IMG/VR virus record: IMGVR_UViG_3300002334_000124
Span: 20,765-84,764 of that record
Source of the DNA: a virus
Length of the DNA stretch: 64,000 nt
Reading direction: 5' to 3' (one strand)
The notes under the pieces are model-generated. The model did no database searches. It was not told the DNA's origin and worked only from the letters and a program-made list of their open reading frames with translations. The position numbers were made by a program, and so were the translations under genes. Positions 11,885 through 60,802 of this stretch are shown piece after piece (within the stretch, counting starts at the first letter, position 1; every line of letters begins with the position of its first letter).

Positions 11885-12558
11885 CTCTACTGATCCCTCT
11901 TGGAGGGATACTCCAACAGCAGGGCGCCGCTGAGGCGGACCCACCTGACTTTCGATCTGTTGCAACAGCACAGATTGACAACTCGGAGACCATTACGATC
12001 GGGAAACCCGCAGGCACAGTTCAGAATGACGTTATGATTTGCCTCATTGGGACTTCATCTGTTACAGCGACACAGCCGACCCTGGCAGGCTGGACTGAAG
12101 TGGGCTCGGGTCTATCGGGTTCTAGTATGTCAGGAGCTTCTTGGTGCTACTATAGAGTAGCGGGTGCGTCTGAGGGCTCTGATTACACATTTGACGGTTT
12201 GAGGTCCACCGACGATTCGTCAGGGTTTATCGCTTCTCTCACGGGTATAGATACCAGTACTCCGTTTGACGCATTTGGCGCCAGTCAGGGGGGTTCCCCA
12301 AACACCACCTCTGTCACTACTGTTGTGAATAACGCCTATATTGTTGGTCTTACGCATTCAGATAGTTCGGGTGCCCAGTCGTATTCTTCTAGTAGTTTCG
12401 ATGCCGAACGCCTAGATTTTCGCTTCACGAACAAGGATCACATAATGGCTATGTACACGGAAGACGATGCAGGAGCGGCCGGGCTAAAGAACCGGACTGT
12501 TGCCTTTACAGGGGGTGGGGCCGGACTTTGGGTGGTTAGTTTCCAGCCAGCATCATGA
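11881..12558 (+). CDS. Virion beta-sandwich protein (fibre tip/adhesin-like)
   Basis: ATGA overlap with the fibre gene; KPAGTVQNDVMI...WTEV motif of phage virion proteins. Confidence 0.55.
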   Translation: MTLLIPLGGILQQQGAAEADPPDFRSVATAQIDNSETITIGKPAGTVQNDVMICLIGTSSVTATQPTLAGWTEVGSGLSGSSMSGASWCYYRVAGASEGSDYTFDGLRSTDDSSGFIASLTGIDTSTPFDAFGASQGGSPNTTSVTTVVNNAYIVGLTHSDSSGAQSYSSSSFDAERLDFRFTNKDHIMAMYTEDDAGAAGLKNRTVAFTGGGAGLWVVSFQPAS

Positions 12559-17379: not shown

Positions 17380-18189
17380 ATGAGTTTCGCACGTGCTCTA
17401 TTGCAGGATCTCTACATCAAGGAAGCCCTTGTTGAGATCCCTAGACCCGCAGAACCCGAACTGGACGAAGAGGGTAGTCCGGTTTTGGATGACGACGGTA
17501 ATGCCGTCATGGTCGACCAGGACCCGATTGTCTTCTATGCACGGAAGATGAACCCTCTCCAGCAGGAGTCTGCTGCACGTAGGGCGTCAGCGGCTCAGAT
17601 TCATATGCGTCGTCTTGTTTTTCGTCCTGATGATCCCGATTATTCAATCATGGAATCGGCCGTCGACGAAATCGAAGATCTGTCAATGTTTGTTGCCAGA
17701 GTCGAAAGCAATAACGACACCGACAAGATGCAACAAGAGCTCTCGGAAGAAGACGAATGGGCGAAAGACAACTACTACCAGTCGTTGATTGATGCGTGGA
17801 CTCCCAAGATGAAGAGGGACTGGACCGAAAATACCGAAGAGGAACGTGATCCAGAGTCGAAAAGGATCTGGGCCGAGCTGAAGCGTTTCGATGACATTCT
17901 AGAAGACAAGATGAAGTCGCGTCGTACGAATCGTGCAGCTGAAGTTGAAGCTAAGCCCGAAGAAGAGCAACGAAAATTGGTCTTCAAGATCCTCTTGGAA
18001 CAGCAATGCAACGGGGAGTGGATGCGTGTATTCAATCTGTGGCGTCAGATTTATGGCATCGTGGACAAGAACAAGGATCGGGTCTTCGAGGATGAAGACG
18101 ATGCTATGTCGTCACCAATTGAAGCTCAACGGATCTTCCGCCAGGCCCTTGACCGCATCACCCTTAGCGTCACAGATGTAAAATCCTAG
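17380..18189 (+). CDS. Tail assembly chaperone (G)
   Basis: Between tail tube and tape measure; acidic, helical. Confidence 0.65.
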   Translation: MSFARALLQDLYIKEALVEIPRPAEPELDEEGSPVLDDDGNAVMVDQDPIVFYARKMNPLQQESAARRASAAQIHMRRLVFRPDDPDYSIMESAVDEIEDLSMFVARVESNNDTDKMQQELSEEDEWAKDNYYQSLIDAWTPKMKRDWTENTEEERDPESKRIWAELKRFDDILEDKMKSRRTNRAAEVEAKPEEEQRKLVFKILLEQQCNGEWMRVFNLWRQIYGIVDKNKDRVFEDEDDAMSSPIEAQRIFRQALDRITLSVTDVKS

Positions 18190-18574: not shown

Positions 18575-21500
18575 ATGGTAGCAGGCACACAACAGTTTGT
18601 ACTTCAGTTCACAGCTGATACTACGGGAATGCAAACTTCTCTGCGCGGGTTTGCAGGCACGGCCAAGACTTTGCTTGCCGAGATCCAGACTATTGCCTCT
18701 CGTCCTATTAAGCCTGGCGGTATTTCTCCTGCTGCCAGTGCTGGCCTGGGAGACATTGGTCCTTTGGCGGGGGTCTCAGCTCCTCTGCTCGGTGGTTTCC
18801 AACAGGACATCACTAGTCAGGCCAGGGCTGGTGGCGCATCTTCGATTGGGGCACGTAGGGCTGGTCAGGAAGCACTTCGTCAAGCTGAAATAGCATTGGC
18901 ACAGCAGTACAATCTGACTAAATCTGAACAGATCCTCCTGTCTCGTTCTATTGAGAGGCACATCGGCGCCGAAAACAATGCTGTACGAGCAACCGAGACT
19001 CGCGCGCTTCGTGAATTTCAGGCTGCGGAATCTCTTCGTGGAGATACAGCTCGTGAGCGTGTTGCTTCAGAGAGCGCACTACGCGCCAAGGCTCAGCGTA
19101 TCGTTGCCGAGCAGCAGGAAGCTGAGGTTCTTCGACGTCTGACTCGACAAGAGGCTCGTCTTGCTGGCCTCCGTGGAGCAGAGGCTCGTGCTGCCATATC
19201 TCGTGCTTCGCAGTCGGGTGCTGCTGGTGCTGTTGGTCAACGTCCAGGCGAGTTCTTGGGAGGCGGCTTCAGACAAACGCTTCGTTTTGCTATCCCTTCT
19301 GCTTTGTTGTTCGGTGCTGCTGCTGGCATTCGGTCGATCGTCCAGGAAGCCGAAGAACTGGAACAGATCAATGTTCGTCTCACTTCACAATTTGAGAACC
19401 TTGGTAGTCTAAATGTCTTCGATGACCTGATCAAATCTTTCGGCCAGATCCCGGATGAAGCAAATCGTGCTGCTGTCGCCACTGAAGAGCTTAACTCTTT
19501 CCGCGAAGCCACTGCTGGAATTGCTCTTGATACGGGCGTTGCCGCTGATCAGGTGCTGGCTCTCGGTAGTTCATTTGTCGGTTTGTTCGCTTCGTTCGAT
19601 GGTTCTGACGACAACTTCCGTCGACTGGCTCAAGAGGCCACAAAGATAACTTCAGAGTTCAGCGTCATTACTGGTCTGAATCCTGAAGAAGCCTTCAATG
19701 ATCTGGTAGGTGCTGTTCGTACCTTTGCAAATGAAGCTCCAGATGTCAACGTATTGCTGAAGAATCTGTCTGACGACTTGGTGTCGGTGGCAGACGTTTC
19801 TGGTGTTGCTGCTGAAGAGCTTGCTGATTTCGTTGGCCGTATAGCACCTGTTTCCGAGACAGCTGGGTTCCTCATTGAGGAAGTCGCGGCTATCGGTGGT
19901 GCTTTGCTCCAGGCTTCTGGTCTCGGTGGTGCTGTACTTGCCGAGCAGTTTGGTCGTATTGTTTCTACCTTCGGTGACGGACTTGACGAAGAGCTTGCCG
20001 ACCTGGCCATTAACGTCCCTGAAATTGGTCTGAACCTTGAAGACATCTTCTCGGGCAACACTAAAGATGTCCTCTTTCAGCTGATTGAGGGCTTTGAAGG
20101 ACTATCCGAGGCACAACAGCGTCAGATCATTTCCAGTGTAGGTAGTCGTCGTGAAGGTAACACCCTTGCTACTTTGCTTCAGAACAACACTGCGGTCTTC
20201 ACGGCTTTAGCAGCCCAGCAAGACAATGCGGGCGCAGCTACGGAACGTTTTGGAAAGATATCCGAAACTCTGACTGTTAGCTTCAATCAGCTCAAGGTCG
20301 AACTCGAACTGCTTGGTCAGGAATTGTTGCAAGGTGGACTTGGCGACATCCTTCAAGATCTCATCGCTGTTGCTAGTACTTTCGCCGACATCCTTGACAA
20401 AGGTCTCGGCCCCGCGATTGCCGGGATTTCCAGTATTGTTGGAGTCTTCCCTCCTGAACTTCTGGCTCTCAGTGTCGCCATGGCTCTTGGCTCTCGTTCG
20501 GCTATAGCTTTGGGTAAGGGCCTCCTTTCTGCACGTAGTGCAACTACCGGTATCACTACTGAGTTCAGCAAACTTGGAGGATCTGCAGCGGGAGCCTCAA
20601 CCGCGACAAGTGGTCTAAGAACTGCTGCCCGTGGGCTCACAGGTGCCCTTGCGGCGGCAATTATCGTTTCTGCCGCATGGAGTGCGGGTTCTGCTCTGTA
20701 CTCCGCCAATACCGAGAGGGCAAAACGTCAGACAGAAGAGTTCACGTCTGTTCTTCGTGATTCTGGTTCAGAATTTGTGGCTATCGCTGATCGTGCCCGT
20801 GAATTGAATGTAGAACTGGAAGAGACTATTCGTCTCGAAGGGGCCGCTTCGGCAGGAAGAGGAGGAGGAGGCTCTGTTGATCCAACTGGGTTTGGAGCAG
20901 GTCTTGTTAGTTTGGCTCGTGGACGTGATGATCTCGAAGATATCAACAAGCTTCTTGATTTTGCTGGATTAAACGCTAGTCAATTAGTTGCTGAGTTGAT
21001 CAAAGTTGAACAAGAGACAGGTCGCCTAAATTCACCACAGGTTGCGTCTGTACTCACTAGCGAGAGCGGAAGTTTTGAGCAACTTCTCGGGGACGAACCG
21101 TCAAAGAGCCGCGTTGCATTAGTGAATGCTCTTGATCGTCTGGCTAAAGATGAAGGTCTGTCACAGGGTCAGATCATTGATGTATTCGACACTCTGTTTG
21201 ACGCTACCGATGCTGCTGAAGGCACCGCAGCGGCGCAAGCTGATGCCGTTTCTGATTTCTTAGACACATTACAATCTGCCAACTCACAGAATGATGACAT
21301 TCGTGCCCAGATTAGTGAACTGAAGTCGATTCGTGATGACACTACTGAAGGTGAAATTGATTTTGTAATTGCCGCTGCTCTTGCTTTTCCTGATCTTGCG
21401 GAAGCTGCCAATAAAGCTGCTGCTGAAGTACAAGGTATTCGTAATGAGATAAATCAAGGTGCTACTGACCTTGCTGTGGTTCGCGCCCAGCTTGAAGCTG

Positions 21501-42578: not shown

Positions 42579-42991
42579 AGATACGACTAAGCAATCCCGA
42601 CAATCTCTATGCCTCCACTCTGTACACTGAGGGATGCGATGTAGAGATCACCGAAGCTTTCATAGGACCGATGCTGACTACCGTGGACGGTGAGAAGATT
42701 GGCATCTCGATGCGTGATTCGGGTTTTGAGGTGTGCTACACCTCACATGATGGAGCGGAACCTCAATGGTTCTCGTTTCAAGGTGGGGCTGTCAAACCCA
42801 ATCCCAAGAACTACGGAAATGATGATGCAATGATGGCTGCTTGGCTGTTGATTGCCAACGCATGGGGTGGGAACTGGGACGCTGCTCCTAACGAGTGGAG
42901 TGACGCCGCTACCAGATGGCGCGACGAACATCTCAATTCGTATTTGGCAGCAACAAAAGAACAACGTCCGATGGAAGATGAAATCAAATGA
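42548..42991 (+). CDS. Hypothetical protein (start uncertain)
   Basis: ORF overlapping neighbours. Confidence 0.5.
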   Translation: MPHASRSKLLKIRLSNPDNLYASTLYTEGCDVEITEAFIGPMLTTVDGEKIGISMRDSGFEVCYTSHDGAEPQWFSFQGGAVKPNPKNYGNDDAMMAAWLLIANAWGGNWDAAPNEWSDAATRWRDEHLNSYLAATKEQRPMEDEIK

Positions 42992-50790: not shown

Positions 50791-53250
50791 TTAAGACGCT
50801 TCAGTCATCGCCTTGCGAAGAGCGACGACGCTGGTGGAGTACTCGTCGGGGAGTCGCATGGTTCTACCCATGTAACGTACGGTAACGGGTCCGTCGCCTT
50901 TGCTTTTGAGAATCAGTTCTTTGAGCATCTCGGGTGAGTAGCTATCGGGTAGCCAGACGTGCACGTTGCGGCAGGTAGAGAGAGCACGCTGGAAGAGTTT
51001 GCAGGTCTCAACCAGGATCTTGGTGCCGTTGCGGTCGTCTTCGGGTCTGCCATTCACGTATACGACTGCGTCTTCTTCGATGAACTGGCCGAACAACTTA
51101 GTCTGACGAGGAAATAAGACGCAGCTAATGGTGCCTGTCATGTCTTCGATGTCAAATATCTTCATTAGGTCACCTTTCTTGGTCCACTTGTTGTCGACCT
51201 TGGTGATGATCCCTGCGATGGTGCCCTTGTACCAACTATCTTCTTCCATCTCGTTGAGTTCAGCGATGGTGTACGAGATGTCCTCATCCAGTATTTCCTG
51301 TATGTCAGCGAGGGGATGGCCCGAGATGTATGCGCCTAGGTACTCTTTCTCTAGAGAGAGGAGCTCTGCCTGGTCGTAGTGCAGGTCAGGGATGCCTACC
51401 TTGGCGACCTCGGGTTCGACACTGAACAGCTGCAGGTCACCTAGTTTCTCGATTCGTTTGGAGTCTTTCTTCATCTGCGCCTGGATCTGAGGGTAGATCT
51501 GTACCAGGCCGCGACGTGGATGACCGAGAGCATCGAACGCACCTGATGACACTAGGGCATTGACGACGCTCTTGTTAAGGGCTTTCGCTCCGACACGTTC
51601 GGTGTAGTCAAAGAAGTCTTTGTAGTCCCCTTCGGCTTCGCGTTGCTCCACGATTTCCTGTGCCGGACCTTCACCTACGTCACGGATCCCGAGGAACCCG
51701 CATATCAGCGTAGTGTCATCCAACGGGCGGAAGTTTCGTTCGCTCCGGTTGATCTGTGGCCCCATCACAGTCAGACCCATGCGTTTACATTCGGACAGGT
51801 AGATGCTCAGCTTGTCTTGCTTCCTCTGAGCGCTGGTAAGGAGGGCAGCCATGAACTCTATTGGGTAGTTAGACTTCAGGTAGGCAGCCCAGTACGTAAT
51901 GAGGCCGTAACCCACAGAGTGGGATTTATTGAAGGCATAATTTGAAAACTCAGCTACCGTGCTGAACAGTTTGTCGGCTAGTTCTTGACCAAAGCCGCGA
52001 TCTACCATGCCTCCTACGAACTTGTCTTCTTCTTCCGCCATGGCTTCGGGTAGTTTCTTGGCACAGGTCTTGAGCAGTAGGTATGCCTCACCGAGGGAGT
52101 AGCCAGCGAAGTGCTGTGCTACGTCCATTAGTTGCTCCTGATATATCATCAGACCGTAGGTCTCTTTGAGCATCTTCCTGGCATCTTCGTGGAACACTTC
52201 GATCGATGCGCGTCCATTCTTGCGGTCTGCGTAGTCGATGTGCATGTTCGCAGCGAGAGGACCGGGACGATAGAGCGCCAGCACGGCAGCGATGTGTTCG
52301 AACTCGGTGGGTATTAGATCACGCAACAACGCACGCATCTGTGTGCCTTCGAGCTGGAACACTCCAATGGTTTCGCCTGCCTGGAGTGTCTCGAATGTCT
52401 TCTCGTCGCCTAGAGGCAGAGCGTTCAGGTCGATGTCTACTTGGTGACGTTCGAAGATCAATTTGAGCGCGTCAGAGAGCACGTCTAGAGTGGTTAGTCC
52501 GAGGAAGTCTTCCTTCAGCAGGCCGAGATCTTCGATCGCATGCATCTCGTACTGGGTGGTGATGGGACCATCCGGTTTCTTCTGGATCGGAGTGTAGTTG
52601 ATCAGTGGTTTGGGGGCTATCACCACAGCAGCAGCATGAATGCCATAGGATCGTCGCAGACCCTCTAATCCCATGGCTACATCTACGACTTCACGCACGT
52701 TGGAGTCCGCCGAGTACATGGAGCGTAGAGTCCCGGCTTGGTCGTATCCGTCTTTGTACCTCTCGGATTCGACAAGGCATGCCTTCAGCGGAGTGTCCCG
52801 ACCGAACAACAGAGGGGGCAGGGCTTTGGCGATGAGATCTCCTGTACTGTACGGCTTGTCGAGCACTCGGGCAGCATCTCGTACGGCTTGACGGCTCTTG
52901 ATCGTGCCGAAGGTGATGATCTGTGCCACATGGTCTTCGCCGTAGGTCTTAGCACAGTAGTTGATCATGTGTTCCCGGTAGCGTGAGTCGATGTCGATGT
53001 CGATATCACATAGAGAAGCTGCTTTGCCATACTGAACTGACAACCCCTCAGGGATCTTCATTGGCTTTTCGTTGGTTAGTCCTATAACGTACAATACGGT
53101 TGAGCTTTGCGGATTCGAATATGTGGACTCAGATGTATCGAACATCTCCACGATAGCGTCGACCATGCCTGGCGTCGCGAAGATAGCTGCGGCCTCGTCA
53201 TCTAGCCATTGTTTGTTCGCTGAATCCTTCCTCGGAGAGAAAGTGATCAT
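50791..53250 (-). CDS. dnaE: DNA polymerase III alpha, C-terminal part (catalytic Asp residues, fingers, HhH, OB); start uncertain, frame open to 53352
   Basis: CDIDID, QIITFG, GIHAAAVV, KEDFLGL, GVFQLE, YAFNKSH, YISGHPL. Confidence 0.92.
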   Translation of the reverse strand: MITFSPRKDSANKQWLDDEAAAIFATPGMVDAIVEMFDTSESTYSNPQSSTVLYVIGLTNEKPMKIPEGLSVQYGKAASLCDIDIDIDSRYREHMINYCAKTYGEDHVAQIITFGTIKSRQAVRDAARVLDKPYSTGDLIAKALPPLLFGRDTPLKACLVESERYKDGYDQAGTLRSMYSADSNVREVVDVAMGLEGLRRSYGIHAAAVVIAPKPLINYTPIQKKPDGPITTQYEMHAIEDLGLLKEDFLGLTTLDVLSDALKLIFERHQVDIDLNALPLGDEKTFETLQAGETIGVFQLEGTQMRALLRDLIPTEFEHIAAVLALYRPGPLAANMHIDYADRKNGRASIEVFHEDARKMLKETYGLMIYQEQLMDVAQHFAGYSLGEAYLLLKTCAKKLPEAMAEEEDKFVGGMVDRGFGQELADKLFSTVAEFSNYAFNKSHSVGYGLITYWAAYLKSNYPIEFMAALLTSAQRKQDKLSIYLSECKRMGLTVMGPQINRSERNFRPLDDTTLICGFLGIRDVGEGPAQEIVEQREAEGDYKDFFDYTERVGAKALNKSVVNALVSSGAFDALGHPRRGLVQIYPQIQAQMKKDSKRIEKLGDLQLFSVEPEVAKVGIPDLHYDQAELLSLEKEYLGAYISGHPLADIQEILDEDISYTIAELNEMEEDSWYKGTIAGIITKVDNKWTKKGDLMKIFDIEDMTGTISCVLFPRQTKLFGQFIEEDAVVYVNGRPEDDRNGTKILVETCKLFQRALSTCRNVHVWLPDSYSPEMLKELILKSKGDGPVTVRYMGRTMRLPDEYSTSVVALRKAMTEAS

Positions 53251-53260
53251 GTTGCGAAAT

Positions 53261-54013
53261 CTAGAAGAGTTGCTTAGCTCGTTCATATTTCCTATCCAGG
53301 CTAATGTTCGAATCTTTGTATAGCCAGATGATGGTATCTCTATGAGCTTCAAGTGCCCATATGGATTTGTGTTTCATTATGGACCCAGATCGTGGCAGTT
53401 CTTGTTTTAGCCAGGACATCATCGCATGCGTCCCAACCACTTTCAGCCTAAAAGTTTTGCCCGATATGGCCACGCTCCCATCACCGTCGACAAAACCACG
53501 AATGAAATGTCGAATCAATTCTTCGTCGTCTATGTTCGGCGGATTGAGATCGTGTGTTTTGTTTGGATGACAACCATGACTCCAAAGATCTGTGACCATC
53601 TGATGACTGGTTATCGCTAAGCGCGCTACTTTTGCTTTGCCATAAGACGTGACTTGTGAGAATAGGTGAACTGGATATGTAGACGAAAGATCTTTAGCCA
53701 GCCTTACGAGATGTGTTTGGTCTTTGTCGCTGAGGTCGACCTTGAGCACGTATTGACCGTCGTAACAACCTGAGGAACTGTCAGCATAGAGAAAGCCTAG
53801 CCAATAGGCTTTCTTTTCGTTGTTGATTTCGGAGAAGAAGGAGTGATTGACCTCATACCTCCTACTGTTCACCTTGTTTGATCGACATTCGATGCCTTCG
53901 CGCTTGAGTATCCAGTAAACTTGATGGGCCTTGAGCCCAATTTCGTGCCCGACGATCGCGGCTGACTTGCCTTCATCGTACAATTCCAAGATTCTCTGAG
54001 TATGATTTTCCAT
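53261..54013 (-). mobile_element. LAGLIDADG homing endonuclease with N-terminal HTH, inserted in dnaE
   Basis: KAYWLGFLYADS and RHFIRGFVDGDG; own RBS AGGGAGGT. Confidence 0.88.
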
Positions 54014-55319
54014 TATACGTGACCTCCCTACTGTTGCTATCGACTTCGAGAGCCGTCAATTCAACTTGGTACTTGAAAACATCGTCCATAGCACCACGGG
54101 CAGGATTCAGGAAACGTTCGAAGAGTAGCCCGTACTTGAGGGGGTCTACGTCTGTGATCCCGAGACAGTAAGCCACGGCGCAGCCACCTGCTGAGCCACG
54201 ACCAGGACCTACCATGATGCCTACGCTTTTGGCGTGACGAATCAGGTCCCATGTGATAAGGAAGTAGCCAGGGAATCCCATCTGACATATGACGTCAAGC
54301 TCATATTCGAGCCGGTTCACAACCTCGCTGGTTAGTGTCCCGTATCTACGTTCTGCACCATCTATGACGAGGGCGCGCAGATAGTCTTCTTCGTCCGCGT
54401 ACCCGTCGGGGATATCGAAGTGTGGCATGTGGACCGTGTCGAAGTCGATGTCGATGTCAGCCCGTTCAGCGATCAGCAACGTATTGTCGCACGCCACTTC
54501 TACTTCACGGAACAGATGCCTCATTTCGTAGGCTGACTTGAGGTAATGCTCGTGTCCGTGGAACTTGAACCGGTTCGGGTCGGACATCTTCGACCCTGTC
54601 TGTACGCAAAGTAACGCAGAATGGGCCATAGAGTCAGATGACAAGGTGTAGTGCGAATCGTTGGTGGCTACTAGGGGCGCGCCTATAGCTTTAGAGATCT
54701 CGATGAGCTGCGGGTTTGTCTGTGTCTGTTCAGGAATCCCGTGGTCTTGTATCTCGATGAAGAAGTTTTCTTTACCAACGATGTCCTGGAACCTGCTGGC
54801 TGCTTCTGTGGCTGCTCCCACGTCGCCGCGTAGCAATTCCTGAAGGACGATGCCCCCCAGACAGCCCGACGTCACTATGAGGCCCTCAGCGTGGTCTGAG
54901 AGGATGTCCCAATCAATGCGAGGCTTACGCCAGAACCCCTTGAGGAACGCATCTGACGACAGCTTCATCAGATTCTGATAGCCCTCGTTGTTGTGGGCGA
55001 TGACAGTTAGATGATGAAATGCCTTCTGACCGTCTTCGGTCTCGCCCCCGAAGTCGTCTATGGTTTTCTTCTTCGGCTTCGGACGGTCGGCCACACTGTG
55101 TCGCGCCATGTAAAGCTCGTTGCCGATGAGAGGTTTGATGCCCTGCTTCTTGCATTCCTTGTAGAAAGGGATCGCCCCGTACATGTTTCCATGGTCGGTG
55201 CAGGCTATGGCAGGTTGCCCATCAGCAACTGCGGCGCTTACCAGTTCCTCAATTTTCGAAGCCCCGTCAAGCATGCTGTACTCGCTATGGACATGACAGT
55301 GCACAAACGAATCAGTCAT
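53973..55319 (-). CDS. dnaE: DNA polymerase III alpha, N-terminal part (PHP domain plus start of palm)
   Basis: [41 protein letters not shown]; start MTDSF at 55319. Confidence 0.92.
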
Positions 55320-55650
55320 CAATCGTTGCCTTTTTCCATGGGATGGCATCACACAGATATTCTAGGTAAGGAGGTAGTAGCACAATTGCAGTCATGGGCG
55401 AACTTGAATACTTGCCGAGGGCACGTTCGAGGGAAGCTAATCTTTCACAGACGTCGCAACTATAAAAATCTAGCCACGCCTGTGGAGTGTTGTTTCTGCC
55501 ACACTGGCAACATCTACCGGGAAAATCGGAGGTTGCTAAGACTGCTGCTCGCATTCGGCCATCATGCAGCAAAATGCCATCTTGATATGGAGCCCAAGAA
55601 AGCGAAACCCCCAGGATCACCAGTCCGCGAGGCGTCATTAAGTTGACCAT
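55312..55650 (-). CDS. Zn-finger paralogue 7
   Basis: [43 protein letters not shown]. Confidence 0.75.
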
Positions 55651-55958
55651 TGGGTTGTTGCTCCTTTCCATGATGTGTCGCTGCATAGGTATGCTAGATG
55701 TAAAGGTAACTGCACGATCCGGGTCTTCACGAACGGAACGGAACGTGGGCAGACTTCACAACGATATTCATCTGCCCGTCGCTGCATGAAGTTGGCACGA
55801 CCACATCTGCAGCACCTACCGAGAATATCAGGAGTCGCTAAGACTATCGGAAATATTGATGATAGATGTTCAACGTACAGAACTCCATCTTGATACGGAG
55901 CCCAAGATATCGGGACTCCGAGGATTACCAATCCTTCGTACGTTACGAAGCTAACCAT
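55638..55958 (-). CDS. Zn-finger paralogue 6
   Basis: MVSFVTYEGLVILG..QDGVL..GRCCRCG..CEVC..LPLHLAYLC. Confidence 0.75.
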   Translation of the reverse strand: MVSFVTYEGLVILGVPISWAPYQDGVLYVEHLSSIFPIVLATPDILGRCCRCGRANFMQRRADEYRCEVCPRSVPFVKTRIVQLPLHLAYLCSDTSWKGATTQWST

Positions 55959-56319
55959 ATCTACACCGTGCGTCGCAGAGGTACTCCAGATGGGGGGGCA
56001 CAATCACGACTGAAGTTAAAACATTGAGTCCCAGATATGACGAACGCGTCCCAAGGATATTCAGACAGTGTCCACAACAATAGATATTTCTGTACGGCCA
56101 ATCGATAGGGAGACGTTTACACCAATAACCTGTTCCGATAGATCGATGAGTGTCAGATCGACCACATTCGCAACACCTGCTGCGGTGGCTACCACTGGCT
56201 AAGACTATTGACTGACTCTTCGAACCGTCCCACACAATGCCATCTCGGTGTGGGATCGAATCATGTTTGACTGCGTCCAGCATCACCAATCCTTCTCGGA
56301 TCATGAAGTTAACTGTCAT
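55951..56319 (-). CDS. Zn-finger paralogue 5
   Basis: MTVNFMIREGLVML..RDGIV..RCCECG..CGHC..PPHLEYLC. Confidence 0.75.
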   Translation of the reverse strand: MTVNFMIREGLVMLDAVKHDSIPHRDGIVWDGSKSQSIVLASGSHRSRCCECGRSDTHRSIGTGYWCKRLPIDWPYRNIYCCGHCLNILGTRSSYLGLNVLTSVVIVPPHLEYLCDARCRYG

Positions 56320-56641
56320 CGCAGAGATACTCCAGATAACGAGGCAGCCTCAGAATGGCAGTTAGCACCACGTTGAGTTTGCGATTGACGCCTCTGCCTT
56401 TGCAATTTACACAACAATGAACATTCGCCCATAGCCACTCAATGCTGAACAGGGTGCAGATGCCTCTGTCCTCATACGCAAAGCCATTTCCACTACCACA
56501 GGTGCCGCATTTGCTTCTGTCTCCGGGTCCGACTAGGACTATCTTCTGACGGTGCGGGCCATTGAATAGGATGCCGTCTTCGCATTTCTCGCCTATCCCG
56601 AGTATGACCAATCCTTGCGGGATCATGATGTTAACGGTCAC
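56309..56641 (-). CDS. Zn-finger paralogue 4
   Basis: MTVNIMIPQGLVILG..EDGIL..KCGTCG..CVNC..LPRYLEYLC. Confidence 0.75.
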   Translation of the reverse strand: MTVNIMIPQGLVILGIGEKCEDGILFNGPHRQKIVLVGPGDRSKCGTCGSGNGFAYEDRGICTLFSIEWLWANVHCCVNCKGRGVNRKLNVVLTAILRLPRYLEYLCDDS

Positions 56642-56915
56642 GACACAACCATTCTAGATGATGCGGCAGTGTCAGGACTGCAGTGGCTGTCGGACATGTT
56701 GGACAATAGTAGGTTTTAAAGCTAAGCTTCATAGGGATCCCGTCCACGGTCTCCCCACATTGACAACATCTACCGGGGTTGTCGGAAGTTGTAAAGACTA
56801 CTGGGACTCGCCAGCCGCTATCTCTGACTAGGACACCGTCGTGATGTAGTGTCTCGTCATCGAATTCCACGTCCAGTATGATCAACCCTTCTGACGTCAT
56901 CAGGTTAATGGTCAT
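56631..56915 (-). CDS. Zn-finger paralogue 3
   Basis: MTINLMTSEGLIIL..HDGVL..GRCCQCG..CPTC..LPHHLEWLC. Confidence 0.75.
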   Translation of the reverse strand: MTINLMTSEGLIILDVEFDDETLHHDGVLVRDSGWRVPVVFTTSDNPGRCCQCGETVDGIPMKLSFKTYYCPTCPTATAVLTLPHHLEWLCRDR

Positions 56916-56923
56916 GGCACAGG

Positions 56924-57286
56924 TTAACAGTCACGACATAGGAACTCCAGGTGAGAGGGCAGAGGTAAAAGTGCCGTTAAGATCATGTCGTACTGTGGTC
57001 CTGACTTACATCCTACACAACGGTAAGTGTCAGCCCATGGCCAGTCGATGGGGAATATCGAGCAAAGCCCTCCAGGATCCACTGCTGGGGCGCTTTCCTT
57101 GCCACAACCCCAACACCTACCCTTGTAGCAGCGGGTTGTTAGAACTATTGGTTGAACCCGGTTGGCGTTCATCAGGATGCCATCCTCGTATCCTTTTAAG
57201 CGAGCGGTGATTTTGGTGTAAACTCCGCCGCGATATACGCCGCCGAGTATCACCAATCCTTTTGGGATCATCAGGTTGACAGTCAT
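56924..57286 (-). CDS. Zn-finger paralogue 2
   Basis: MTVNLMIPKGLVILG..EDGIL..GRCWGCG..CVGC..LPSHLEFLC. Confidence 0.75.
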   Translation of the reverse strand: MTVNLMIPKGLVILGGVYRGGVYTKITARLKGYEDGILMNANRVQPIVLTTRCYKGRCWGCGKESAPAVDPGGLCSIFPIDWPWADTYRCVGCKSGPQYDMILTALLPLPSHLEFLCRDC

Positions 57287-57678
57287 ATGGGACTCAAATT
57301 GACTGTCCATGATTTGCCACCGCTCCATGGCTCACTGGTGCACAGATACTCCAGGCAAGGAGGGAGGAAGATCAGCAGAGTTGTTTTGGTCCCACTAATG
57401 GGAAGACCCGGACAGTCTATACAGGTATGAGTACCGACGTAGGCGTAGTAGGCGCCGGTCGAGTATTTCTGTTTCTTGTTGTGCGAACCACATCTGGAAC
57501 ACCTACCCCAGTATCGTGACGTTGCCAATACTATTGATCGCATTATCTGATAACGATGATTGAACAGGATGCCATCCTGGTACGGATCCCAATACGATAG
57601 GTCCGACTTTTCCGCGGCACATCGAGCCGATACGCCCAGTAGAACTAGACCTTCTTTGACGGGTATGTTGACAGTCAT
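57283..57678 (-). CDS. Zn-finger paralogue 1
   Basis: AGGAGGT RBS; MTVNIPVKEGLVLLG..QDGIL..GRCSRCG..CIDC..LPPCLEYLC. Confidence 0.75.
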   Translation of the reverse strand: MTVNIPVKEGLVLLGVSARCAAEKSDLSYWDPYQDGILFNHRYQIMRSIVLATSRYWGRCSRCGSHNKKQKYSTGAYYAYVGTHTCIDCPGLPISGTKTTLLIFLPPCLEYLCTSEPWSGGKSWTVNLSPI

Positions 57679-57712
57679 TCAGGACCTCCTGTCTGGGTTG
57701 TGGACGTAACAG

Positions 57713-57741
57713 AAGCTAGCAGTGTAGTAGAGATGCGTCAA
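57713..57741 (-). promoter_or_regulatory. SigA-type promoter TTGACG-N17-TAGCTT with extended -10 TG
   Basis: Direct reading; near twin at 60015-60043. Confidence 0.65.
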
Positions 57742-57754
57742 GCTGAAAGACTTA

Positions 57755-58281
57755 GGAGAGGCGCGATAGGTATGGGTTTCGTGGTGAGCGTGGCCCCTCC
57801 CTTAGAATCGAAGTTGGCTGGCGCGTGAGTTTTGGGTTCCGACGCTCTTTTGGCCAGACCAACTTCAGAGTTGTCAAGAAATAACCGGAGTGCGGCGTCA
57901 GTTTCATGGGTTTCGCACCTGTCATGGCTGCACCCCGGTAGAGAATGGAACTGGCTGGCGATGCTCGTTTGGGTTCAGACATGTCCTTGGCCAACCAGTT
58001 CCAAGAGGTAACCGAGCGTGACGAAGTATTAAGGGGTTTCGCAGCATCCTGGTCACGCTCGGTAGAAATGAGGATTGCCCTGGTTGACGGTGACACTCTG
58101 GGTTTCGCGAAGTTCAAGATCAACCAGGGTAGAAAAAGTAGGGAAGGTAGAAAGGGTAGAAAATGATCCCCTACCGCGGACTCACAGTGGGTTTCGTCGT
58201 TACTCTGGCAGGTAGGGGATCAGAGAATGGTGGACTGGCGGCTTTTCCGTGGGTTTCGCGTCATGGTTGGCCAGCCCGCCA
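57755..58281 (-). ncRNA. TIGR-like stem-loop guide array, 8 units
   Basis: Each unit on - strand: stem-GGCCA-N9-CGAAACCCA-N9-CGCC-stem; loop repeats at + 57773, 57833, 57907, 57970, 58033, 58099, 58188, 58250. Confidence 0.88.
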
Positions 58282-58290
58282 GAATAAAAC

Positions 58291-59058
58291 CTATGCGGAG
58301 TCCACAGCGACCCACAGGTCTTTGAGTAGGTTCTTCTTGATGATCCTGAGACCATGATTGTTTACGTGTCCCGGTTTCCAATCTGGATGGGCCAGAGCAG
58401 CTGACGTTTTGGCGTCGTAGTAGTAGTCGCAGTATCTTTCGTTCTTCAACCTCACCATGTTTCCAGCGATGACATGCAGGATTATTCCTGCGTTCTGGTT
58501 GCCTAAAGCCTGAGCGGCTTCCTGTGTCATGCCCGTTTTCCGTCTTTCTTGGCTACCTACACCACAGTACTGCCAAAGCATGCTCACTGAACGGGGTACG
58601 GTTTTGCCTGACACGAGGATCTGTTCAGGCGTATCGTCCCGCTTCTTTTTTCCCGTGGGGTCGTCTTCATGCCACATCGGAGTCTTCCAGCATGGGTGAC
58701 CGATCGCGCCGAGCAAACGGCCGAACGACTTATCGTTCAGTCCACGTGTCTCTTCCATGAATCCGACGAAGACGGGCGGGAGTACTTTGATTTGCGTTCC
58801 AAGTAGCGTTACAAGTTTGGTTTCCTGGTCAAGCATCACCGCGGCGTACTCGAACACTTCAGGGGCTGCGCTCACATTGCGAACAATCAGCTTGTCTTCT
58901 TTACCTTCGCGGATCTTCCTGCTGATGTTTGCCTTGCCTTCGATCCCGAGTCTGTTGTCTAAGGAGATCCGGTACTTCATTGAGCTTTCAAGGAGCAAAG
59001 AGGTCATGGCGACCAGTTTGAAATCTCCGAGTACTTTCTTGGTTGGCTTCTTGGCCAT
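58291..59058 (-). CDS. tasA: Nop-domain/IS110-related RNA-binding protein without nuclease domain (TasA-like)
   Basis: RISLDNRL coiled coil, RGLNDKSFGRLLGAIG, SVSMLWQYCG, YYYDAK, HVNNHGLRIIKKNLLKDLW; no RuvC or HNH; flanked by dual-spacer arrays. Confidence 0.8.
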   Translation of the reverse strand: MAKKPTKKVLGDFKLVAMTSLLLESSMKYRISLDNRLGIEGKANISRKIREGKEDKLIVRNVSAAPEVFEYAAVMLDQETKLVTLLGTQIKVLPPVFVGFMEETRGLNDKSFGRLLGAIGHPCWKTPMWHEDDPTGKKKRDDTPEQILVSGKTVPRSVSMLWQYCGVGSQERRKTGMTQEAAQALGNQNAGIILHVIAGNMVRLKNERYCDYYYDAKTSAALAHPDWKPGHVNNHGLRIIKKNLLKDLWVAVDSA

Positions 59059-59101
59059 TGGGTTTCGCTTTCTATTTGGGTTTAGTTGGTGTTATTGAAC
59101 T

Positions 59102-59239
59102 TAGAGGGCTGGCGCAGCGGCTCTGGGTTTCGAAGCTGTAATGGCCAGCCCTCTAGAAATTAACCCCTGACTGCCAGTCAAGGGAAAGTGCGGGCTGGCG
59201 CCTATTCTGTGGGTTTCGAGCCATTCCTGGCCAGCCCGC
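59102..59239 (-). ncRNA. TIGR-like guide sub-array, 2 units
   Basis: Loop repeats at 59124 and 59210, 9-nt spacers, near-perfect enclosing stems. Confidence 0.88.
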
Positions 59240-59250
59240 TGAGATTGAAC

Positions 59251-59823
59251 TTAGGTGATGTCTGGGACTTCGTATTCGGGACGCTTCTTCAGCACCGCCC
59301 TCAATGACTTGACACCTTCGGCGTTCATGTCGTCGATGGCTTGCTGATGTCCGCTGATCGTCTTCTCGATACCGTTGACATCCTTTTGCAAGAACTTGAT
59401 GCGAGCCTCATGCTGTTCGGGGGTGGCGTCCAGATAGTTGGCACGATGAGCGTTACCTTCATCATCGATCCAGGGGAACTCGACATGAGATAGGTACGCC
59501 CACGGATTCCGCTGCTCTACGACTGTGCCTCCGCCTTTCTTTCCCTTCTTGCCTTTGGCTGCCCTCTGTTGGGTGTCGATGTCCTTGCGTTCCTCGAATA
59601 CAGCCGCGACTATAGGCTGGGTTACACTGTTCCTGACCATGGGGACCACAGCTCCAATGATGCTCGGGATGACAGAGTCTTCTGCCCCGTCGCTCCTGAT
59701 GGAGTTCCAGGCCATCAAACCGTGGTCGTAGTTGGAGAACGTTGGGTTGTTGATCAACGAATCTTTGATGTAGTCCCGATAGGACTTCGTCGCGACCTTG
59801 GTCTTCTTGGTTTTCACTGCCAT
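59251..59823 (-). CDS. Unknown protein embedded in the TIGR-like locus (190 aa)
   Basis: AAGGAAAG RBS before ATG 59823 (MAVKTKK); basic patches; C-terminal coiled coil. Confidence 0.75.
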   Translation of the reverse strand: MAVKTKKTKVATKSYRDYIKDSLINNPTFSNYDHGLMAWNSIRSDGAEDSVIPSIIGAVVPMVRNSVTQPIVAAVFEERKDIDTQQRAAKGKKGKKGGGTVVEQRNPWAYLSHVEFPWIDDEGNAHRANYLDATPEQHEARIKFLQKDVNGIEKTISGHQQAIDDMNAEGVKSLRAVLKKRPEYEVPDIT

Positions 59824-59854
59824 GTTTGCTTTCCTTGTAGTTGGTGGAGAAAGG

Positions 59855-59975
59855 TTGATCGGGCTGACGGGCGCTTGATGGGTTTCGCGTGCAGGATGGC
59901 CAGCCCGATCAAGGGTGTTTCCCTGGCTGGCGAAGCGTAATTGGGTTTCGTTCCGTTTCTGGACAGCCAAGGAAA
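59855..59975 (-). ncRNA. TIGR-like guide sub-array, 2 leader-proximal units
   Basis: Loop repeats at 59879 and 59942, 9-nt spacers, enclosing stems. Confidence 0.88.
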
Positions 59976-60014
59976 GAATGTTGACATCCCCTCGAATCTC
60001 GGGAGTCTAGAAAG

Positions 60015-60043
60015 AACTTAGCAGGTTTACGGGTCTGCGTCAA
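60015..60043 (-). promoter_or_regulatory. SigA-type promoter TTGACG-N17-TAAGTT (extended -10) upstream of the TIGR-like operon
   Basis: Direct reading; about 40 nt upstream of the first unit. Confidence 0.65.
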
Positions 60044-60432
60044 ATGTCGACGTCAACAATCTCCCAGTCCATTGCGTCAGCGAGGCCTCTCATGTGAGCT
60101 GTCCCTCGTCCACCGGGGCACGCCACGAGGATCGTCTTGTTAAACAAAGACTCAAACAACGAGGGATGTGATTCACAAGTGACAGCAGTAGCCAGCATCC
60201 CCATCCGCTTGTTCCTCTGAGGGCCAGCACTACGTCCTTCAGCGTCCCACAGTGCAGGCATCGTGACGAAAGGGATCCCCTTGTCTAAGGCGTACCGAGC
60301 ACCGATAGCATCGGCCCCTTTGGCCCCTCCGTTGATGATGAAGGTGGGTTGGACTTCGTCGAGTGTGGCATACAGGGCTTGCGTCCCATTGTAGTTGCGG
60401 CCACCACAAACTATGACGGTACGTTCAAACAT
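60040..60432 (-). CDS. SLOG-family (DUF2493/YspA-like) protein
   Basis: VCGGRNY, INGGAKGAD, AGPQRN, PGGRGT. Confidence 0.85.
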   Translation of the reverse strand: MFERTVIVCGGRNYNGTQALYATLDEVQPTFIINGGAKGADAIGARYALDKGIPFVTMPALWDAEGRSAGPQRNKRMGMLATAVTCESHPSLFESLFNKTILVACPGGRGTAHMRGLADAMDWEIVDVDI

Positions 60433-60802
60433 AGCTCTTCTTCGTTAGGGTTCGTCTACGCTTCTTTGGTATCTCCAGAATGGGGTTCGGTCGTTTACCT
60501 CCAGTGATGTGAAGCTCGGGGGGTGTGACGTGAGCTTCGAGTTTGACCCACTTCTGATCGCAGAACACTCCTACGAATATGATCCTCGTGATCTTGCGGT
60601 CTGGCTTCTTTTCGTCTTTGAGCCAGCGACGGAGAGAATTCCATCGTACGTATCGCCAGACCTTATGACCGCGTTGGCCTTCTTCCATCGATTCGAGCAG
60701 CAACTGGAACAGACGTTCCTCGAATTTCTTTTCGTCTTCAAAGTACTCGATCTCGCTTGATGAAGAGCCGTTTCTCGACCATGCATAATGGATCTTCCAC
60801 AT
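60425..60802 (-). CDS. Hypothetical protein
   Basis: ORF in operon, overlapping neighbour. Confidence 0.55.
   Translation of the reverse strand: MWKIHYAWSRNGSSSSEIEYFEDEKKFEERLFQLLLESMEEGQRGHKVWRYVRWNSLRRWLKDEKKPDRKITRIIFVGVFCDQKWVKLEAHVTPPELHITGGKRPNPILEIPKKRRRTLTKKSYV

Follow-up and report, generated by a model that had tools for sequence, protein, structure and literature searches.

Stem-loop TIGR arrays that accompany a nuclease-free Tas protein, TasA, were published in 2025 (PMC12045711), and a repressor role for TasA followed in a 2026 preprint (bioRxiv 10.64898/2026.09.09.750476). Both sources describe a stem-loop guide (tigRNA) in which a 9-nt loop separates two spacers of 9 nt each, with box C/D-like flanks and a variable palindromic stem around them; the units take flexible positions. 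PlTasA, from a Peromyscus leucopus gut contig, is described in PMC12045711 and bioRxiv 10.64898/2026.08.11.744272 with 13 stem-loops in three sub-arrays, and the latter source includes a cryo-electron microscopy structure of PlTasA with a stem-loop guide. BlTasA and MbTasA are further examples, and reporter assays and electrophoretic mobility shift assays identified TasA as an RNA-guided repressor with guides that are cut near the stem bases (bioRxiv 10.64898/2026.09.09.750476). Here, we analyzed a 64,000-nt stretch of viral DNA (the window), positions 20,765 to 84,764 of the IMG/VR record IMGVR_UViG_3300002334_000124, in which an array of stem-loops surrounds a gene for a 255-aa protein, here called tasA.

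An original prediction, made from the letters of the window alone, had read this locus as a stem-loop TIGR array with a nuclease-free TasA, and our analysis supports that reading. We consider it very likely (probability about 0.88) that a tailed phage here carries a TIGR-TasA locus of the stem-loop type, with guides that would pair with 18-bp DNA sites and with a probable companion partner. Since stem-loop TIGR with TasA, split sub-arrays and repression by TasA are already in print, the locus adds to a known kind.

Twelve stem-loop guide units

Between positions 57754 and 59975 of the window, the minus strand holds 12 guide units, in each of which a variable stem is built around CCA-N9-CGAAACCCA-N9-CG (Table 1). 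All 12 minus-strand units that had been predicted are present at this place, and the layout proposed for them is correct: two units, a 190-aa open reading frame (ORF), two units, the 255-aa ORF and eight units, the last eight spaced 60 to 89 nt apart. Every unit lies on the tasA strand and within 920 nt of tasA. Measured from stem to stem, the units span 48 to 59 nt, with stems of 9 to 15 pairs; the length of 36 nt given originally holds for the core and not for the whole stem-loop.

The exact core CCA-N9-CGAAACCCA-N9-CG occurs eight times in the whole 84,764-base contig, always within the locus and on the minus strand, and the reversed control pattern gave no match in the same contig. A relaxed expression (CCA-N8-10-loop with up to two loop substitutions, followed by N8-10-CG) recovered 11 of the 12 units together with one stemless chance match at 42756. 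Using a looser detector, we recovered all 12 minus-strand units of the locus and weak matches of 6 to 7 pairs elsewhere in the contig; the single 10-pair stem outside the locus (contig position 11888) does not have the CCA-N9/N9-CG spacing inside it.

The extended core that had been proposed, GGCCA-N9-loop-N9-CGCC, stands as a consensus but not as a rule. In the alignment of the 12 units it is combined with the exact loop only in units 3, 4, 5 and 12, and units 9 and 11 have it together with variant loops. The loops of units 8, 9 and 11 are one-base variants, spacer A of unit 8 measures 8 nt if CCA is taken as the anchor, and the CCA of unit 7 is replaced. Columns C14, C25, A28 to C32, C43 and G44 are invariant across all units.

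The spacers originally listed agree with the sequence, and their uniqueness holds: none of the 24 occurs twice. The minimum Hamming distance between two spacers, 2 of 9 positions, is by our own arithmetic about the chance expectation for 276 comparisons. CCA precedes and CG follows each spacer (5' to 3'), and the core can be written as CCA-N9-CG + AAAC + CCA-N9-CG. This is a two-fold symmetric box C/spacer/box D layout, as expected for a tandem-spacer guide, and position and symmetry suggest CCA as the putative box C and CG as the putative box D.

The stems were assessed by scoring the outer 12-pair helix of the 12-unit alignment against 500 shuffles, with slid registers as a control. Pairing was found in 79.7% of the stem cells, a figure lowered by unit 8, which lies one column out of register in the alignment, compared to 53.9% in the shuffles. 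The covariation score was 0.641 versus 0.190 in the control, none of the 500 shuffles attained any of the observed values, and slid registers paired in 29 to 50% of cells. Changes on both sides were seen at 12 of 12 pairs. The claim that each unit is enclosed by its own inverted repeat with pairing kept is therefore borne out by this compensatory change, but the repeats are not wholly unlike one another, since the inner stem GCTGG/CCAGC is common to about eight units and variation lies in the outer stem. The same pattern, with stem conservation confined to the bases next to the boxes, is known from published stem-loop units (bioRxiv 10.64898/2026.09.09.750476).

Nearly every stem is preceded by or starts with a pyrimidine-rich TTCT, CTCT or CTT, strict CUU not being constant. 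In stem-loop TIGR, a CUU motif at the stem bases is the processing site (bioRxiv 10.64898/2026.09.09.750476); judged by their letters, the stem bases found here resemble this motif but differ from it.

The 255-aa Nop protein

Neither the 255-aa nor the 190-aa protein matched a Pfam family, and the four ORFs around the locus gave no Pfam domain except one SLOG. Across all 90 Tas homologues considered below, Pfam returned one stray DUF5830 match only, and a single-sequence PDB search with the 255-aa protein gave no match. In PHROGs, residues 23-251 matched PHROG 4285, labeled "transposase," at 1.6e-21. Furthermore, an exhaustive HMMER search retrieved 539 cluster representatives at E ≤ 1e-3, mostly with 30 to 40% identity, and a word-index search found one close relative with 72% identity and likewise 255 aa (sister P0002).

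We then used a profile of the 255-aa query and 89 homologues (90 sequences, alignment A1). Its match to TIGR-TasR (chain 9MTY, 6e-27) falls into two stretches that together span the coiled coil and the C-terminal Nop part; it begins at chain residue 116, past the TasR RuvC domain. TasH (21KL, 9W04 and others) was matched at 1.2e-21 and IS621 at an E value of 0.3 only.

The AlphaFold2 model of the protein (pLDDT, the predicted local distance difference test, 91.6; pTM, the predicted template modeling score, 0.87) shows long helices (residues 7-37 and 66-92) and, after them, a helical C-terminal domain into which a small beta element is inserted at 128-150. In a Foldseek search against the PDB, TasR and TasH chains took ranks 1 to 10 (E values of 1.5e-6 to 8e-5, template modeling scores of 0.55 to 0.63, probability 1.00), and the IS110-family recombinases ISCro4 and IS621 took ranks 11 to 17. 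The comparison with Nop and IS110 domains that had been suggested for this ORF was thus carried out, and both a Nop fold and Tas homology were found; the profile matches to 9MTY and TasH and the fold ranking, with TasR and TasH ahead of ISCro4 and IS621, bear out the description of the product as a nuclease-less, Nop/IS110-like TasA.

A protein of 255 aa whose first coiled-coil helix starts at residue 7 cannot accommodate an HNH or RuvC domain, and we therefore assign it to TasA. The model ends in a helix that covers residues 229-254 of 255 and leaves no C-terminal tail for a Y/H processing dyad; absence of the C-terminal Y/H processing loop is a trait of the stem-loop Tas clades (bioRxiv 10.64898/2026.09.09.750476). 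Taken together, profile and model place the protein among the Nop proteins of the Tas family: both its sequence and its fold are homologous to the Nop/coiled-coil part of TasR and TasH, and it has no nuclease domain.

The ORF is intact, and residues that are near-invariant across the 90 homologues are all present. In the structural account of PlTasA, H292, W295, H299, R306 and K310 contact box C (bioRxiv 10.64898/2026.08.11.744272). Residues H224, W227, H231, R238 and K242 of the 255-aa protein have the same spacing, which is a match of spacing only and not of an alignment with PlTasA. Of these, W227, H231, R238 and K242 are each conserved in at least 90% of alignment A1.

Relatives, companion gene and surroundings

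Through the 90-sequence alignment, we fetched 39 IMG/VR loci with a Tas homologue. Many of them carry units of the same design, with the loops CGATACCCA, CGAATACCCA, CGACACCCA or CGAAACCCA. When an enclosing stem of 7 or more pairs was required, 118 units were counted on the tas strand versus 10 on the other strand, and 20 of the 39 loci have at least three units on the tas strand. Scans for the pattern GGCCA-N9-CGAAACCCA-N9-CGCC gave 50 stretches from viral contigs and at least 120 from metagenome contigs; as many unrelated contigs of both kinds share it, the pattern makes a simple search handle. A Tas homologue was located by tblastn in 13 of the 50 viral stretches and in 17 of the 120 listed metagenome stretches, none above about 35% identity to this divergent query. 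No close-kin loci were found in viral contigs with the single 255-aa query or in metagenome contigs with a two-sequence alignment.

A Tas homologue, labeled hypothetical protein or transposase, occurs in 83 records of cultured phages, 81 of them from Mycobacterium phages and one each from an Arthrobacter and a Rhodococcus phage; mycobacteriophages were already named among TIGR carriers by Faure et al. In Mycobacterium phage Bethlehem, gp71 is the homologue, and three or more stem-loop units of this design lie in the 335-nt spacer that separates it from gp72. This spacer (L098:2675-3009) also contains two more long-stem hairpins with loops lacking the CGA-ACCCA motif, which may be degenerate guides.

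Two further loci illustrate how arrays vary. In IMGVR_UViG_3300046532_002079 (L018:2438-2800), a three-unit block occurs twice in a row, at a period of about 177 nt. Paired copies have identical stems; one pair of units has the same spacer A and two changes in spacer B, and the other pairs differ in both spacers, which suggests that spacers turn over faster than stems. This duplication bears on how TIGR arrays gain spacers. In the 117-kb contig IMGVR_UViG_3300036790_000270, exact guide cores occur in seven separate stretches (L049, L051, L057, L063, L077, L078 and L081), and its guide units seem to be scattered through the genome rather than gathered in one array.

The 190-aa gene between the first two sub-arrays has a single close relative, 72% identical (P0154). 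This relative and the 72% Tas sister P0002 probably lie on the same contigs, because their contig counts and longest contigs agree; P0002, with P0154, is known as a protein only. By tblastn, 8 of the 39 loci have, immediately before tas, an ORF in which the last ~50 residues of the 190-aa protein recur. An alignment of 10 sequences shows H138, R141, I142, H159 and L174 as invariant and a conserved C-terminal motif, W-x-EAT-x-E[DQ]H-x-ARI...RHQ-x-AI. With the corresponding profile, a homologue was found in 18 of the 39 loci, 8 of which had contributed to the profile itself, and in all 18 it lies on the tas strand. In 16 of the 18, the homologue ends at most about 600 nt before the Tas match (the gap in L013 is about 400 nt), and in two (L009 and L019) it lies downstream of tas. 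A homologue is also present in 11 of the 12 best Tas matches, and Bethlehem gp72 matches the profile over its full length at an E value of 4e-8. We conclude that the companion is a conserved neighbor of tasA in this clade and probably a partner of the system.

Searches for the nature of the companion covered sequence, profile and fold. A single-sequence PDB search gave coiled-coil noise only, and a PDB profile match to a mitochondrial ATPase inhibitor (2.6e-4) was rejected as a coiled-coil match due to helical composition. In PHROGs, one family member matches one unnamed family. No member of the family (0 of 10) matched any Pfam ParB family at E ≤ 0.1, and no ParB chain appeared in the PDB profile search or in fold searches with a model whose N-terminal half has low confidence. 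This AlphaFold2 model is confident only at residues ~110-185, where it shows a C-terminal beta-hairpin with a long helix. A wide fold search (VIA) reached a best Z of 5.3, mostly over residues 12-114, so that the confident C-terminal module was barely covered; Foldseek found nothing in the PDB at E ≤ 0.001; and in the ESM Atlas residues 103-185 are resembled only by unnamed viral proteins of ~95 aa. A reading of the C-terminal module as beta-beta-alpha (HNH-like) was dropped, as the hairpin has no conserved His and no TasH/HNH match was found.

Guide sequence also reaches into the companion gene. At 59570-59578 (minus strand) it holds the loop-like 9-mer CGACACCCA with no enclosing stem, and in two relatives (L018:1955-2410 and L029:2033-2479) a complete guide unit, with a loop that encodes ...DTQ..., lies within the linker of the companion ORF, at a place that matches 59570-59578. 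The main text of the repression preprint (bioRxiv 10.64898/2026.09.09.750476) does not contain the words "accessory," "neighbor" or "ParB," and in the structural TasA preprint "accessory" refers to protein hairpins. A bolder idea, which we put forward tentatively and regard as rather doubtful, is that actinophage-linked stem-loop TIGR-TasA is a two-protein system in which the companion, with invariant His, Arg and His residues on its hairpin-and-helix module and a gene set among the guide units, is a dedicated TasA partner, e.g., a tigRNA maturation factor or a TasA-delivered effector. Cultured cluster-A-like mycobacteriophages carry the same three-part module (in Bethlehem gp72, guide units and gp71), so that Mycobacterium smegmatis could serve for a direct test of what TasA does natively.

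The remaining elements of the locus include two promoter-like sequences that bracket it (Table 1). The second marks the downstream edge of the locus and stands at the head of the zinc-ribbon paralogue genes. The twins have the common form TTGACGCA-N12-CTGCTA[AG][GC]TT and are two of only six matches to a loose expression on both strands of the window. A single promoter for the locus, as originally proposed, is plausible, the element upstream of unit 1 being a candidate by its sequence. The half unit that abuts the start codon of tasA covers the likely ribosome-binding site of the gene; a loop repeat abutting the start codon is no regular feature in 40 related loci, where the five flagged cases lie within arrays.

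Just upstream of the locus lies a gene for a 130-aa SLOG/YspA-like protein (Pfam PF10686, 4.5e-14; PHROG 289, "GTP-binding domain"). Directly downstream is a row of small paralogues, each starting MTVN... and carrying CxxC pairs, and further on a DnaE-like polymerase is encoded in two ORFs, both matching PHROG 405, with a third ORF between them. The best match of this polymerase is in Streptomyces phages, with 37% identity. The contig is a linear viral record with a G+C content of 51% and encodes a primase-helicase; no tRNA was found within the window.

Table 1. Position of guide units, genes and other elements in the window
Feature	Position	Strand	Details
tigRNA unit 1	59918..59975	-	stem 13 pairs; TCCA-N9-CGAAACCCA-N9-CG
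tigRNA unit 2	59855..59912	-	stem 14 pairs
tigRNA unit 3	59190..59239	-	stem 10 pairs
tigRNA unit 4	59102..59155	-	stem 12 pairs
tigRNA unit 5	58228..58281	-	stem 11 pairs
tigRNA unit 6	58164..58222	-	stem 12 pairs
tigRNA unit 7	58078..58129	-	stem 11 pairs; TCT for CCA; loop at 58099-58107
tigRNA unit 8	58011..58063	-	loop CGAAACCCC
tigRNA unit 9	57946..58003	-	loop CTGAACCCA
tigRNA unit 10	57884..57939	-	
tigRNA unit 11	57809..57867	-	loop CGGAACCCA
tigRNA unit 12	57754..57801	-	stem 9 pairs
tasA	58291..59058	-	255-aa Nop-domain protein, predicted without nuclease domain (profile, fold model, fold search)
Companion gene	59251..59823	-	190 aa; start taken as ATG at 59823, preceded by AAGGAAAG
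Half unit	59056..59083	-	CCA-N9-CGAAACCCA; abuts tasA ATG; no stem, no closing CG
Terminator-like hairpin	59164..59184	-	9 pairs and T-rich tail; no guide core; between units 3 and 4
Promoter-like element	60015..60043	-	TTGACGCA-N-CTGCTAAGTT; just upstream of unit 1, overlaps the stop of the SLOG/YspA-like gene; own regular expression
Near-twin promoter-like element	57713..57741	-	TTGACGCA-N-CTGCTAGCTT; just past unit 12; own regular expression
SLOG/YspA-like gene	60040..60432	-	
Row of small paralogues	55638..57678	-	
DnaE-like polymerase ORFs	50791..55352	-	

Proposed function and comparison with known systems

By analogy with its relatives, the region would be transcribed and cut near the pyrimidine-rich stem bases into single stem-loop tigRNAs, and a TasA dimer would hold one tigRNA through its box C/D motifs. 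Spacer A would pair with one strand and spacer B with the opposite strand of a contiguous 18-bp DNA site. Since the protein has no nuclease, binding is expected to block rather than cut, and as many as 12 different sites, in the host, a rival element or the phage itself, may in this way be closed to transcription or to other DNA transactions. As far as sequence and a predicted model can tell, the locus has the structural traits that define stem-loop TIGR-TasA; the role originally proposed, a non-cutting, programmable binding of DNA for repression, corresponds to what experiments showed for another TasA (bioRxiv 10.64898/2026.09.09.750476).

Targets were sought with 24 candidate 18-mers in both orders (reverse complement of spacer A plus spacer B, and spacer B plus reverse complement of spacer A), using mis-paired spacers as a control. 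In the contig itself, no site was found with at most one mismatch, and a single site with two mismatches (unit 5, window position 17496) lies inside an ORF. Also, the three units of Bethlehem had no site with at most three mismatches in the first 50,000 of the 52,250 bases of that phage. CheckV estimates the contig to be 57% complete, so that 43% of the phage may be missing from this search. Short spacers and a metagenomic context are known to make targets hard to call (bioRxiv 10.64898/2026.09.09.750476).

Several results weigh against the reading as a working TIGR-TasA locus. At up to three mismatches, the contig gave no excess of sites (3 of 24 true pairings, compared to 16 of 264 mis-paired ones), and across the fetched related loci (1.46 Mb) no site had fewer than three mismatches, just as for the controls; the 18-mer search that had been suggested for the spacers therefore yielded nothing above the mis-paired controls in either set. 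The stem-base motif is mostly TTCT-like and not strict CUU. In the interval 57000-60600, Rfam gave no family at E ≤ 1, and a sigma-70 scan called no minus-strand promoter, the twin elements included. With 14 to 16% identity in the fold alignments, the 255-aa protein stands far from all Tas proteins of solved structure, and its DNA binding and repression are therefore an extrapolation. Searches with Pfam, PDB profile, PHROGs, Foldseek, VIA and ESM Atlas assigned the companion to no known fold or family, and gene neighborhood alone does not prove it to be a partner of TasA.

The most serious alternative is a decaying relic, with units and a gene that are recognizable but no longer work together. 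Such decay would agree with the empty target searches, with the missing CCA of unit 7, the loop variants of units 8, 9 and 11 and the 8-nt spacer of unit 8, and with the stemless fragments at 59056-59083 and 59570-59578. However, the tasA ORF is intact and retains the near-invariant residues of the 90 homologues, its fold model is highly confident, the stems are kept by compensatory change at every pair, and the sister protein has the same length and a companion that is also 72% identical. We therefore consider a relic improbable.

A ribonucleoprotein that guides an action on RNA, like box C/D small nucleolar ribonucleoproteins (snoRNPs), instead of binding DNA appears very unlikely. It would share with snoRNPs a Nop domain and box C/D-like guides, a point made in the Discussion of PMC12045711, and no DNA target was found in the contig or in the related loci. 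Against this, all Tas proteins tested so far act on DNA, with TasR inactive on RNA substrates according to published work, the published TasA binds double-stranded DNA and represses transcription, and SLOG is the only Pfam domain in the four ORFs around the locus.

Still less probable is an IS110-like RNA-guided recombinase or mobile element with bridge-RNA-like hairpins. The "transposase" label of PHROG 4285, the frequent annotation of cultured-phage homologues as transposase and the presence of IS621 and ISCro4 at ranks 11 to 17 of the fold list speak for it, but the profile prefers TasR to IS621 by 6e-27 to 0.3, a coiled coil that begins at residue 7 leaves no DEDD/RuvC-like catalytic domain, and there are twelve tandem two-spacer units instead of one bridge RNA with two loops. 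Finally, the view that the hairpins are ordinary intergenic stem-loops (terminators or repeats) and chance neighbors of a Nop-like gene, to which the coreless hairpin at 59164-59184 might lend itself, is refuted, as far as sequence allows, by stem covariation and unit distribution: a two-spacer core is conserved within every stem, the same design stands beside homologous genes of other phages with a strong bias to the tas strand, and the rest of the contig offers only 6- to 7-pair chance matches and one off-design 10-pair stem.

By itself, the stem-loop TIGR-TasA locus is confirmatory, a clean 12-guide example of a described family that is already being engineered. It touches open questions of the field, i.e., natural targets, maturation of stem-loop guides and the native task of a nuclease-free TasA, for which three side results could matter: a conserved, unannotated companion that travels with tasA, the widely shared guide core as a search handle, and the presence of the same module in cultured mycobacteriophages with a laboratory host, where knock-outs, small-RNA sequencing and chromatin immunoprecipitation are routine.

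Compared to known systems, the locus is closest to the stem-loop arrays of PlTasA, BlTasA and MbTasA, with which it shares a Nop-only Tas, guide units with two short spacers around a 9-nt loop, box C/D-like flanks and stems that are palindromic but variable, as well as sub-arrays that flank and separate genes, a viral or metagenomic origin and the absence of a C-terminal Y/H loop. It differs in that the phage protein is distant, with ~35 to 40% identity to the nearest cluster representatives besides the 72% sister, in stem bases that are TTCT-like instead of CUU, and in a conserved companion of 150 to 190 aa inside the locus, which goes unmentioned in the main texts consulted on stem-loop TIGR-TasA. 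The putative boxes are CCA/CG, compared to CUU/UG of PateTasR (bioRxiv 10.64898/2026.09.09.750476), and whereas published intragenic guide units lie within tas, those of L018 and L029 lie within the neighboring companion gene.

The dual-repeat systems TaTasR (PDB 9MTY) and SpTasH (PDB 9W04) have a homologous coiled-coil/Nop domain, and their guides, too, are laid out as spacer, loop and spacer in a 9+9+9 pattern. Unlike the locus described here, they possess an N-terminal RuvC or HNH nuclease, constant edge repeats in place of variable stems and mature guides of 36 nt; TasH also has a C-terminal Y/H processing loop, for which the 255-aa protein has no counterpart. The TasA-TasParB operons, as presented in PMC12045711, likewise combine tasA with a second conserved gene and place array units between both genes, but the companion showed no ParB signal (0 of 10 in Pfam; no PDB or fold match), and TasParB loci are described there with dual-repeat arrays. 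The IS110-family proteins IS621 and ISCro4 have a related RNA-binding, Nop-like fold and are set apart by their DEDD catalytic domain; the phage locus, for its part, contains a long series of tandem guides and gives no indication of being mobile. Three findings add to the main texts consulted: the companion family, the guide unit within the companion gene of relatives and the three-part module in cultured mycobacteriophages.

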